Of a stretch of DNA of 5,022 bases, positions 3,001 to 4,721 are shown one piece after another. A model generated the notes under the pieces. That model saw only the letters and a list, made by a program, of their open reading frames with translations, made no database searches and was not told the DNA's origin. The stretch's first letter is position 1. The number at the start of each line of letters is the position of its first letter. The stretch is from a virus (taxonomy: Duplodnaviria > Heunggongvirae > Uroviricota > Caudoviricetes): IMG/VR virus record IMGVR_UViG_2740892229_000003. One strand, 5' to 3'. The translations under genes were made by a program, and so were the position numbers.

Positions 3001-4721
3001 GACAGTCCGGGCGGTAAATGCGTGGGGGCAGCAGGGAGATCCGGCGTCGGTATCGTTCCGGATTGCCGCACCGGCAGCACCGTCGAGGATTGAGCTGACG
3101 CCGGGCTATTTTCAGATAACCGCCACGCCGCATCTTGCGGTTTATGNNNNNNNNNNCAGCCCGCTATCTTGGTACGGCGCTGTACTGGATAGCCGCCAGT
3201 ATCAATATCAAACCGGGCCATGATTATTACTTTTATATCCGCAGTGTGAACACCGTAGGCAAATCGGCATTTGTGGAGGCCGTCGGTCGGGCGAGCGATG
3301 ATGCATCCGGCTATCTGGATTTTTTCAAAGGCGAGATAGGGAAAACCCATCTGGCTNNNNNNNNNNTTTTTACGTTCGCAGTGTGAACACCGTTGGCAAA
3401 TCGGCATTCGTGGAGGCTGTTGGTCAGCCGAGTGATGATGCATCCGGCTATCTGGATTTTTTCAAAGGCGAGATAGGGAAAACCCATCTGGCTCAGGAGC
3501 TGTGGACGCAGATTGATAACGGTCAGCTTGCGCCTGACCTGGCTGAAATCAGGACGTCCATTACGGATGTCAGCAATGAAATCACGCAGACCGTCAATAA
3601 GAAACTGGAAGACCAGAGTGCGGCAATTCAGCAGATACAGAAGGTTCAGGTTGATACAAATAATAACCTGAACAGCATGTGGGCTGTGAAGCTGCAGCAG
3701 ATGCAGGACGGACGCCTTTATATCGCGGGTATTGGTGCCGGTATTGAGAACACCCCTGACGGCATGCAGAGTCAGGTGCTGCTGGCGGCGGACAGGATTG
3801 CGATGGTTAATCCTGCGAATGGCAACACAAAACCGATGTTTGTTGGTCAGGGCGATCAGATATTCATGAACGACGTGTTCCTGAAACGCCTGNNNNNNNN
3901 NNGCAGGGCGATCAGATATTCATGAACGAAGTGTTCCTGAAACGCCTGACGGCTCCCACCATTACCAGCGGCGGTAATCCTCCGGTATTTTCCCTGACAA
4001 CGGACGGGCGGCTGACGGCGAAAAATGCCGATATCAGCGGTAACGTGAATGCGAACTCCGGGACGCTCAACAATGTCACGATTAATGAAAACTGTCAGAT
4101 TAAGGGGAAACTGTCAGCCNNNNNNNNNNCCCCACCATTACCAGCGGTGGAAATCCACCGGCATTTTCCCTGACACCGGACGGGCGACTGACGGCGAAAA
4201 ATGCGGATATCAGTGGCAGTGTGAATGCGAACGCCGGGACGCTCAACAATGTCACGATAAATGAAAACTGTCGGGTTCTGGGAAAACTGTCTGCGAACCA
4301 GATTGAAGGCGATCTCGTTAAAACAGTGGGCAAAGCTTTCCCCCGGGACTCCCGTGCACCGGAGCGGTGGCCATCAGGGACCATTACCGTCAGGGTTTAT
4401 GACGATCAGCCGTTTGACCGGCAGATTGTTATTCCCGCGGTGGCGTTTCGTGGCGCTAAACATGAGCGGGAGAATAACGATATTTATTCGTCATGCCGCC
4501 TGATAGTGAAGAAAAACGGTGCTGAAATTTATAACCGTACCGCGCTGGATAATACGCTGGTTTATACAGGTGTTATTGATATGCCTGCTGGTCGCGGTCA
4601 CATGACGCTGGAGTTTTCGGTATCAGCGTGGCTGGTAAATGACTGGTATCCCACAGCCAGTATCAGTGATTTGCTGGTTGTGGTGATGAAGAAATCCACA
4701 GCAGGTATCACGATTAGCTGA
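2..4721 (+). CDS. J: Tail tip host-specificity protein J (central tail fibre), 5'-partial; composite of 15 tiles separated by N10 gaps, not translatable as one continuous frame as given
   Basis: Direct translation of the + strand tiles gives a lambda J-like protein recognised from memory, e.g. [170 protein letters not shown]. The frame runs open within every tile and ends at TGA 4719-4721. Non-redundant content is about 3.0 kb. The start lies upstream of the window. Confidence 0.9.
673..984 (+). repeat. Redundant tile: variant copy of 281-592 (J coding sequence), about 9 mismatches in 312 nt
   Basis: Base-by-base comparison of 281-592 with 673-984. Differences are mostly third-codon-position; protein changes include V to A (MVWCLW vs MAWCLW) and T to N (LTHPRYG vs LNHPRYG). 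Preceded by N10 at 663-672. Confidence 0.9.
995..1143 (+). repeat. Redundant tile: second variant copy of J block 514-662 (also overlaps 906-984)
   Basis: 995-1143 aligns to 514-662 with a few substitutions; encodes [24 protein letters not shown] where the first copy has [24 protein letters not shown]. Confidence 0.9.
1154..1302 (+). repeat. Redundant tile: third variant copy of J block 514-662, continuing into unique sequence 1303-1349
   Basis: 1154-1302 aligns to 514-662 and 995-1143; encodes [23 protein letters not shown] (G and Y where the other copies have S or G, and W). The tile then continues with [16 protein letters not shown]. Confidence 0.9.
1360..1406 (+). repeat. Overlap copy of 1303-1349 at the start of the next tile
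   Basis: 47-nt near-identical restart (ttctcagtgatttctgctcgg... vs tgctcagtgatttctgctcgg...) after N10 at 1350-1359. Confidence 0.85.
1676..1879 (+). repeat. Fully redundant bridging tile: first 100 nt copy 1566-1665, last 104 nt are copied by 1890-1993
   Basis: 1676-1775 aligns to 1566-1665 (encodes [33 protein letters not shown] vs DNGWE... in the first copy). 1776-1879 aligns to 1890-1993 ([35 protein letters not shown]). Flanked by N10 on both sides. Confidence 0.9.
2114..2178 (+). repeat. Redundant tile: variant copy of 2039-2103 (J), tile extends to 2199
   Basis: Encodes [21 protein letters not shown] vs [22 protein letters not shown] in the preceding tile. Confidence 0.85.
2210..2295 (+). 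repeat. Redundant tile: near-identical copy of 2114-2199 (4 mismatches in 86 nt)
   Basis: Encodes [29 protein letters not shown], a third version of the same block. N10 on both sides. Confidence 0.9.
2973..3130 (+). repeat. Redundant tile: variant copy of 2805-2962 (J, FN3-like region), about 10 mismatches in 157 nt
   Basis: Alignment of 2806-2962 with 2974-3130. Almost all differences are synonymous; one nonsynonymous change (SVLFRI vs SVSFRI). Confidence 0.9.
3367..3493 (+). repeat. Redundant tile: variant copy of 3230-3356 (J), about 11 mismatches in 127 nt
   Basis: Encodes [42 protein letters not shown] vs [43 protein letters not shown]. Confidence 0.9.
3903..3948 (+). repeat. Overlap copy of 3847-3892 at the start of the next tile
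   Basis: 46-nt restart (gcagggcgatcagatattcatgaacgaagtg... vs tcagggcgatcagatattcatgaacgacgtg...) after N10 at 3893-3902. Confidence 0.85.
4130..4295 (+). repeat. Redundant tile: divergent copy of 3954-4119 (distal J), roughly 20 mismatches in 166 nt (about 87% identity)
   Basis: Encodes [55 protein letters not shown] vs [55 protein letters not shown]; seven amino-acid differences. Confidence 0.9.

Follow-up and report, generated by a model that had tools for sequence, protein, structure and literature searches.

The segment at 4296..4718 (plus strand) of the window, the whole 5,022-nucleotide stretch that was analysed, is likely the C-terminal Ig-like receptor-binding domain (RBD) of the J protein of a lambdoid prophage, of the VT1-Sakai/gpJ-1A2 class, with OmpC as receptor and selectivity among OmpC alleles. 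Computed in this study were the homology and fold of the segment, the boundaries of the module, its class and how prevalent that class is. That an RBD 93% identical to the segment uses OmpC is known from the literature, and we infer the same for the present allele.

The RBD segment and the J gene

The RBD of the tail tip attachment protein J was assigned on the basis of Pfam, sequence identity, AF2 modelling and Foldseek. The first-pass annotation had placed the last 141 codons of J at 4296-4718, and these coordinates were correct: the codons are in the frame of ORF 4221..4721 (plus strand), which ends with the J stop codon TGA at 4719..4721. The PF12421 (Ig_GpJ_C) profile matched the segment over positions 1-135 of 135 with 137.3 bits (cutoff 26.2; E 4e-40). 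Two other ORFs overlap the segment, one on the minus strand (4598-4900) and one in a different plus-strand frame (4261-4503); neither had a Pfam match, and both were treated as spurious. Upstream of the RBD, 4130..4295 (plus strand) was identified by nucleotide identity to lambda as the distal end of the J central straight fibre (beta-prism), a conserved stretch to which RBD modules are attached. Over its first 142 nt, the piece 4130-5022 was 88.7% identical to lambda. The junction of the Eligo chimera, lambda residue 964, lies inside the stretch equivalent to 4130..4295.

The window is not one gene. It consists of 15 fragments joined by 10-N spacers and drawn from at least two J paralogs; when placed on J, the 14 short upstream pieces cover overlapping parts of it, and the RBD segment has a physical link to the last piece (4130-5022) only. 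By itself, the window therefore supplies the fibre end and the RBD. In the J of NZ_CP027355, which is identical over the last piece, the domains are ordered FNIII-A, Phage-tail_3, Ig_J, Ig_J_second, Phage_Tail_Tip and Ig_GpJ_C, and the RBD is found at the extreme C-terminus, after the tail-tip fibre domain PF09327. In E. coli 2013C-4991, the RBD corresponds to residues 1019-1159 of the 1159-aa J. The genomic context is canonical, with the genes for tape measure, M, L, K, I, J, lom and stf.

An earlier claim that the upstream J body is near-identical to lambda was true in part. Residues 1 to ~815 of the 2013C-4991 J were 93-100% identical to lambda. However, the alpha-helical shaft at ~815-930 showed 13-53% identity and is of the phage-21 type, forming a second non-lambda block, and the body in the window is discontinuous. 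That lambdoid phages exchange J tips as modules is a textbook case of mosaicism, and this J gene is a four-part recombinational mosaic. Its first part is the hub and FNIII body common to lambda, 21 and 434, which is followed by the phage-21-type helical shaft, the conserved fibre end and the RBD at 4296..4718.

Downstream of J, a terminator-like hairpin with a T-run was recognised from the sequence at 4741..4768 (plus strand), between J and lom; terminators are annotated at the equivalent site in phages 434 and 21. The 5' part of lom, encoding an Ail/Lom outer-membrane protein, occupies 4790..4963 (plus strand) and is truncated after 58 codons, matching PF06316 at profile positions 1-58 of 199 (E 8e-32). 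In NZ_CP027355, the annotation lists lom as an incomplete pseudogene. The terminal 59 bp of an IS66-family element of the ISEc23 type, starting with GTAAGCG, was found in lom at 4964..5022 (no strand assigned) by a 100% sequence match to ISEc23/ISEc47 ends on plasmids. In the L002 annotation, the ISEc23 genes tnp, tnpB and tnpA separate the two lom halves. The prophage may be defective, as lom is cut by the IS element. An intact J was seen in the matching complete genome rather than in the window.

The patchwork of N-joined fragments, the disruption of the neighbouring lom by ISEc23 and the many J paralogs of the strain (15 matching places) could indicate that the segment is an inert remnant without a receptor-binding role, either left over from the J of a decayed prophage or created as a chimera during assembly. 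However, the 892-bp last piece was 100% identical to complete genomes in which it forms the end of an intact J of 1159 aa that has all seven Pfam domains. Unrelated strains of human, dog and chicken origin also carry the identical 426-bp RBD; 2013C-4991, APEC O18, PMV-1 and IHE3034 are among the strains with this exact RBD. Inducible plaque-forming phages (640R1, 2G7b, PhiR40_1, PhiR47_1 and PhiR55_1) carry RBDs that are 91-95% identical. We consider an inert remnant quite improbable.

Divergence from lambda J and fold of the domain

The anchors WPSGT, DRQIV and MPAGRG, previously named as features of the lambda J C-terminus, are present in the segment, and all three do occur in lambda J. BLASTP against lambda J (J02459) aligned the segment to lambda residues 992-1131 with 61 of 140 residues identical (44%), one gap and E 8e-34, and a global alignment gave 43% identity. 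Protein alignment with the lambda tip (991-1132) thus yielded 43-44% rather than more than 90%, and the divergence described by the first-pass annotation stands. The homology to lambda J is far above chance, and so is the divergence.

The boundary of this divergence was examined with a 30-nt profile of nucleotide identity to lambda. Identity was 77-97% over 4155-4274 and at most 50% from 4275, which places the breakpoint at ~4275, some 20 nt upstream of 4296, where the domain had been taken to begin. When residues were grouped by DSSP class, identity to lambda was 42% in strands and 46% in loops, and every indel was in a loop. Divergence that is even between strands and loops, with indels confined to loops, is what a replaced homologous domain would show, rather than one altered by local drift. 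The J tips also formed discrete classes of identity to the segment, at 90-95%, about 63%, about 44% and about 38-40%. The abrupt breakpoint, the even divergence and the discrete classes support the proposal that a receptor-recognition module was swapped.

A structure prediction of the C-terminal domain, suggested earlier as a check, gave an Ig-like beta-sandwich that matches the solved lambda and A8 gpJ tips. The AF2 model has nine strands in the RBD, with pLDDT 80-96 in the RBD blocks; it is a monomer in which the fibre part is poorly defined (mean pLDDT 79.7). The top four Foldseek hits were 9wca (E 7e-22), 8xck (1e-20), 8xcj (1e-19) and 9wcb (4e-19). For 9wcb, the complex of A8 with OmpC(EDL933), the TM score was 0.69 when normalised by target length. 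Sequence matches in the PDB were A8 gpJ (E 2e-81) and lambda gpJ (E 8e-61).

One loop and two hairpins were located in the RBD. Loop 1 (residues 18-25, DSRAPERW; 4347..4370, plus strand), delimited by alignment with DSSP, is the counterpart of phi330 T918-Y921; it exceeds the loop of the phi330/21 type by four residues and equals that of lambda in length. Hairpin 1 (residues 57-62, ERENND; 4464..4481, plus strand) is predicted to insert into the porin by homology to phi330 E953-S962, which points into the OmpC barrel in an AF3 model (PMC12502783). The residue mapping of this hairpin to phi330 was confirmed by letter identity, and the hairpin is five residues shorter than in phi330, A8 and 21. 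Hairpin 2 (residues 114-119, VNDWYP; 4635..4652, plus strand) is a predicted porin-rim contact by homology to phi330 A1015-P1020.

Class membership and receptor use

The RBD type of the segment is carried by about 3,350 of 5,426 complete E. coli genomes and by 57 phage records, including VT1-Sakai, Stx and PPompW prophages and ECOR phages. This class is the commonest J tip among E. coli prophages. The segment RBD was 92.9% identical to that of VT1-Sakai J, 67% to phage 21, 64% to phi330 and 41% to 434. For the natural phages closest to it (VT1-Sakai, 2G7b, 640R1 and the PhiR ECOR phages of Brenes & Laub), a literature search found no published receptor data; the SNIPE paper reports just ManYZ dependence for such phages and no receptor.

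The C-terminus of gpJ-1A2 was rebuilt from the OCR text of the supplement of Brödel et al. (Nature 2024, PMC11338833), which has 8 unreadable codons. Because plain tblastn was fragmented by frameshifts, the OCR DNA was aligned with a frameshift-tolerant alignment. The reconstructed 1A2 was identical to the segment at 120 of 133 readable residues, with no indels. A natural protein, P0002, matched the reconstructed 1A2 at 129/133 residues and the segment at 131/141 (92.9%). We also considered 1A2 as an A8-like RBD and rejected this: the 1A2 sequence ends just before the supplement heading 'GpJ A8', and 1A2 is of the segment's type.

A chimera of lambda gpJ(1-964) and 1A2 delivered DNA into cells that lacked lamB and ompC and were supplied with EDL933 OmpC (PMC11338833). 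In that report, delivery into MG1655 was >95% with EDL933 OmpC and 2% with K-12 OmpC, and delivery into wild-type LamB+ MG1655 was 5% at MOI 50. In the lamB/ompC-deleted background, 1A2 was efficient on 20 of 23 OmpC alleles, among which EDL933 was accepted and K-12 was not. 1A2 has also been used as an O157 OmpC binder in EB003 (bioRxiv 10.1101/2025.02.28.640725). The earlier suggestion that the receptor may not be LamB is thus supported through the 93%-identical 1A2, which enters through OmpC in lamB-deleted cells. By this relationship, the present allele probably also uses OmpC; the class would accept OmpC of the O157-EDL933 type and most natural alleles, and not K-12 OmpC.

The RBD could still act on LamB (maltoporin), as in lambda, if the fold and the conserved anchors were enough. 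The fold and the docking geometry on a trimeric porin are common to both, the Meyer-lab phi21 is reportedly native on LamB, and the phage 21 (OL657228) RBD is only 48% identical to that of lambda, so LamB use needs no lambda-like sequence, although the phi21 data belong to the Meyer-lab phage. However, particles with the 1A2 RBD failed on wild-type LamB+ cells and worked in lamB-deleted cells given a permissive OmpC. LamB use by the segment is very unlikely.

Receptor use is labile in this family, as the Meyer-lab phi21 is reported to act natively on LamB, whereas phi330 depends on OmpC although its RBD and the phage 21 RBD (OL657228) share 81% identity. In phi21, LamB is reported as the native receptor and OmpC was gained by one J mutation (PMC11336670), which contradicts phage 21 as a native OmpC user. 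Given that report, no receptor was deduced from the 67% identity of the segment to phage 21. The receptor of phi330 was identified as OmpC by knockout and complementation. Two other sources were set aside: a 2026 receptor-prediction preprint covers Drexlerviridae-type GpJ tips and not the Ig-type domain, and the C-terminus of Gifsy-1 J (OmpC, OmpX, BtuB) is unrelated, with 18% identity to lambda.

The segment differs from 1A2/P0002 by ten substitutions: R52S, R58K, N60H, N61T, K72R, V89I, T91S, R100H, D116N and S134A. R100H is in the PAGRG loop. The lengths of both hairpins are equal in the segment and 1A2, and residues differ at 3/6 positions in hairpin 1 (R58K, N60H, N61T) and 1/6 in hairpin 2 (D116N), the porin contacts being predicted via phi330. 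These differences might shift the range of accepted OmpC alleles, for example to the K-12 type, or add a porin such as OmpF. Four of the ten fall in the two predicted contact hairpins, the allele ranges of A8 and 1A2 are sharply unlike, and single J mutations alter porin use in lambda and phi21. On the other hand, natural alleles (P0002, P0003, P0004, P0007) vary at these positions with no sign of functional difference, and the acceptance of 20 of 23 alleles by 1A2 indicates that the class is tolerant. A shifted range is somewhat unlikely. That R58, N60, N61 and D116, in place of K, H, T and N in 1A2, retune the accepted OmpC alleles or add a second porin is a tentative and rather unlikely proposal; if it were true, natural alleles of the class would form a fine-grained OmpC-specificity series that partitions E. 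coli lineages among prophages.

Under the preferred reading of an OmpC-directed tip, three RBD copies would cap the trimeric central fibre, and their distal loops would dock on a trimeric outer-membrane porin from its extracellular side. If the tip works like that of lambda, porin binding may spread the RBD bases and send a twist upwards through the beta-prism and the helical shaft, and this would open the tail tip for DNA ejection.

Comparison with known J tips

The finding is correct but ordinary, and the RBD type is already known. This tip class is in most E. coli genomes, where standard pipelines call it gpJ, and it has already been cloned, typed for its receptor (OmpC) and used in engineered delivery particles. 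The porin used is predicted by the RBD class and not by the J body, and LamB should not be transferred as receptor through annotation by similarity to lambda J. The present allele could serve as an extra natural variant for OmpC-allele panels.

The J proteins of VT1-Sakai (Sp15) and other Stx1a, Stx2a and PPompW prophages, and those of 2G7b, vB_EcoS-640R1, PhiR40_1, PhiR46_1, PhiR47_1, PhiR55_1, JLK-2012 and P-EibA, share 91-95% RBD protein identity and the J-lom-stf context with the segment and differ by allelic substitutions only. gpJ-1A2 has the same RBD class, length (141 aa, no indels) and fibre-end junction; it was assayed on a lambda body, whereas the segment's own J has a phage-21-type shaft.

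The A8 gpJ/phi330/phage 21 class (9wca, 9wcb) shares the Ig-like fold and the conserved N- and C-terminal RBD strands (…[17 protein letters not shown](S/T)IS) with the segment. We considered placing the segment in this class, within which phi330 and 21 are 81% identical, but found 64-67% identity instead of about 80%, and loops that differ instead of being equal, with hairpin 1 five residues longer and loop 1 four shorter than in the segment. The receptor of A8 is OmpC, and A8 accepts K-12 OmpC, unlike 1A2. The phage 434 J RBD belongs to the same family and fold, with 41% identity, longer loops (147 aa) and OmpC as its porin receptor. The lambda J RBD (8xck, 8xcj) shares PF12421, the fold and the three anchors with the segment, and presumably the trigger mechanism, but it is 43-44% identical over the whole domain and uses LamB, not OmpC.

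Composition of the window and surroundings of J

The window (5,022 bases) is made up of 15 pieces, each of 86-893 bases, with exactly ten N between neighbours (at 663, 985, 1144, 1350, 1666, 1880, 2104, 2200, 2296, 2963, 3147, 3357, 3893 and 4120), and is not contiguous genome. When mapped onto the J genes of lambda and E. coli 2013C-4991 (NZ_CP027355), the pieces kept the order of J, the tail-tip attachment protein gene, yet overlapped each other; J nucleotides 864-1012 and 1468-1553 were each present three times. The best reference varied by piece. Pieces 3, 10, 12 and 15 were 100% identical to 2013C-4991 J, and pieces 4, 6, 9 and 11 were closer to lambda. 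The window looks like collapsed and bubbled contigs, strung together, of a strain that carries several lambdoid prophages. Since its fragments overlap and come from at least two J paralogs, any ORF read across pieces is artificial.

The C-terminal receptor-binding domain (RBD; 4296-4718, plus strand) lies entirely inside the last and longest piece (4130-5022), as 141 codons of an ORF stopping at 4719-4721. All 892 queried bases of this piece were identical to the chromosome of 2013C-4991 and four other genomes. In 2013C-4991, the matching stretch ends an intact 1159-aa gpJ, and lom comes next. Alternative ORFs overlapping the RBD segment had no family match. Between the J stop and lom, a terminator-like GC hairpin (4741-4760) is followed by a T-run (to 4768), in the position where terminators are annotated in phages 434 and 21. 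The 5' part of lom (from 4790; PF06316, profile 1-58 of 199) is cut after codon 58, where the end of an IS66-family ISEc23 (from 4964, beginning GTAAGCG) interrupts it; this junction is also found in NZ_CP027355 and four other complete genomes.

The J fibre-end stretch is present twice, in piece 14 (3903-4119) and at 4130-4290. Piece 14 was only 90% identical to 2013C-4991 J and ends …[12 protein letters not shown], like phi330, an OmpC-requiring siphophage, and A8, a natural E. coli gpJ C-terminus. Its sequence suggests a co-resident J paralog, whose RBD lies outside the window. Residue F924 of lambda J, which lies in the motif QIFMNDVF, is kept in both window copies (~3865-3890, QIFMNDVF; ~3912-3935, QIFMNEVF). 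F924 is the reported trigger of the Gifsy-1 HepS abortive-infection nuclease (PMC13043305), and the J seen here would be predicted to trigger HepS.

Divergence of the domain from lambda

The RBD matched the full profile of PF12421 (Ig_GpJ_C, 'Tip attachment protein J, C-terminal receptor binding domain') with 137 bits. Sequence matches in the PDB fell into four groups, J proteins only, of which 9wca/9wcb ('A8 gpJ 713') was best (E 2e-81) and lambda gpJ (8xcj/8xck) next (E 8e-61). An AlphaFold2 model of 4131-4718 gave a nine-strand beta domain (mean pLDDT 79.7; RBD blocks 80-96). Its best Foldseek matches were the central-fibre structures of A8 and lambda in closed and open states, including 9wcb, 'Open state of A8 gpJ 713 central tail fiber with OmpC G17 from E. 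coli EDL933'. The high rmsd of these matches stems from the fibre segment, which folds only as a trimer.

The first-pass annotation had named WPSGT, DRQIV and MPAGRG as anchors shared with lambda, in a C-terminus that otherwise differs at most positions and lies downstream of a near-identical body. All three are genuinely in lambda J. On alignment, this description of the C-terminus proved correct: the RBD was homologous to lambda residues 992-1131 (E 8e-34) with 61 identities in 140 positions (44%) and one gap, not the more than 90% identity that would speak against divergence. The near-identity of the upstream body held for residues 1 to ~815 of the full-length J, which were 93-100% identical to lambda, 21 and 434, but not for the alpha-helical shaft. 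Residues ~815-930 showed 13-53% amino acid identity to lambda and 97-100% to phage 21. Piece 13 (3367-3892), which covers the shaft block, was 96% identical to phage 21 (OL657228) in nucleotides, and matched lambda at 71% over 217 nt only. As both the shaft and the RBD are diverged, the gene has at least two exchanged blocks. By its sequence, the shaft block is a second exchanged module of phage-21 type, not lambda type, independent of the RBD.

Identity to lambda in 30-nt windows was 77-97% over 4155-4274 and at most 50% from 4275 on, and the blastn match ended after the first 142 nt of the last piece. Against phage 21 and phi330 (PV189401), identity was 77-90% until ~4334, ~40% over the first loop, and again 70-90% in the last 90 nt. 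The RBD was 42% identical to lambda in predicted strands and 46% in loops, with all indels in loops; this pattern marks a domain swapped for an anciently diverged homologue rather than one changed by local drift. The breakpoint at ~4275 and the even spread of divergence over strands and loops support the proposed swap of the receptor module.

Distribution of the J-tip class

In a tblastn survey of 50,697 phage records, J tips fell into discrete classes by identity to the window RBD. The 90-95% class comprised 57 records, including VT1-Sakai (92.9%), many Stx1a/Stx2a and PPompW prophages, vB_EcoS-640R1 (95%), 2G7b, PhiR40_1, PhiR46_1, PhiR47_1, PhiR49_2, PhiR55_1, PhiR5_1, JLK-2012 and P-EibA. 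Phage 21, mEp460 and others were at ~63%, lambda and HK630 at ~44%, and phages 2851, WGPS6 and Perceval at 38-40%. Of 5,426 complete E. coli genomes, 3,485 carried the 426-bp segment, 3,350 of them over at least 80% of its length; the median among carriers was two copies. The exact allele (at least 99% nucleotide identity) occurred in 177 records, with isolates from human, dog and chicken. This RBD module is the commonest J tip in E. coli; routine annotation names the J carrying it 'phage attachment tail tip protein J'.

Receptor of the window allele

In lambda, four distal loops of the RBD are inserted into LamB, and binding is passed up the fibre until the tip opens (PMC11101478). OmpC is the target of phage 434 J, and phi330, an EHEC Stx2a phage, requires OmpC, as seen with a Keio knockout and its complementation; in AF3 models, the phi330 hairpin E953-S962 sits in the barrel, and A1015-P1020 lies on the rim (PMC12502783). 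The native receptor of the Meyer-lab phi21 is LamB, and a single J mutation adds OmpC (PMC11336670). Therefore, the receptor cannot be read from ~65% identity. The RBDs of phi330 and phage 21 (OL657228) are 81% identical, yet the reported dependence is on OmpC for phi330 and, natively, on LamB for the Meyer-lab phi21. Either a switch of porin takes only a few residues, or the J of the laboratory phi21 is not that of OL657228.

The decisive evidence concerns A8 and 1A2, natural E. coli gpJ C-termini that Brödel et al. (PMC11338833) fused to lambda gpJ at residue 964; delivery by the chimeras was assayed in lamB-deleted, ompC-deleted cells after complementation with OmpC alleles. We took the 1A2 chimera DNA from the OCR text of the supplement. 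There, the 'GpJ 1A2' entry runs up to the heading 'GpJ A8', and the 3' end of this entry, in recoded DNA, translates to [28 protein letters not shown]…[17 protein letters not shown]. In a frameshift-tolerant protein-to-DNA alignment, the window RBD was identical in protein to 1A2 at 120 of 133 readable codons without indels, and was 64% identical to A8 with loop indels. The natural protein P0002 matched the reconstructed 1A2 at 129 of 133 positions, the four mismatches being evident OCR errors, and the window RBD at 131 of 141 (92.9%); therefore 1A2 and the window share an RBD class.

At MOI 50, 1A2 gave 5% delivery into wild-type MG1655 (LamB+, K-12 OmpC). Delivery was 2% into the double mutant with K-12 OmpC and 98% into MG1655 carrying EDL933 OmpC (PMC11338833). 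At the top MOI, delivery was at least 76% on 20 of 23 OmpC alleles, with failures on G1 (K-12), G2 and G40 (PMC11338833). The EDL933 values were taken from Fig. 1b, Extended Data Fig. 1 (G17) and Extended Data Fig. 8. In the Source Data of Extended Data Fig. 2, the 1A2 and A8 numbers of panel C (OmpC-EDL933) repeat those of panel B (OmpC-MG1655), apparently through a copying error. The poor delivery of the near-identical 1A2 to LamB+ MG1655 and its efficient delivery with EDL933 OmpC support the earlier suggestion that the receptor may not be LamB, and it probably is not.

The window RBD differs from P0002/1A2 at ten positions (R52S, R58K, N60H, N61T, K72R, V89I, T91S, R100H, D116N and S134A). 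The phi330 contact hairpins were mapped onto it, and the mapping was confirmed by residue letters. Positions 58, 60 and 61 lie in predicted contact hairpin 1 (57-62), and 116 lies in hairpin 2 (114-119). Relative to the A8/phi330/21 class, hairpin 1 lacks five residues and loop 1 (18-25) has four more. Allowing for these differences, we consider OmpC the likely receptor of the window allele, short of certainty. Given OmpC, a different allele range from that of 1A2 is a real possibility. The module itself is already known; a near-identical form of it has been engineered and its receptor determined, and the anti-STEC particle EB003 carries 1A2 as its OmpC-targeting tip (10.1101/2025.02.28.640725).
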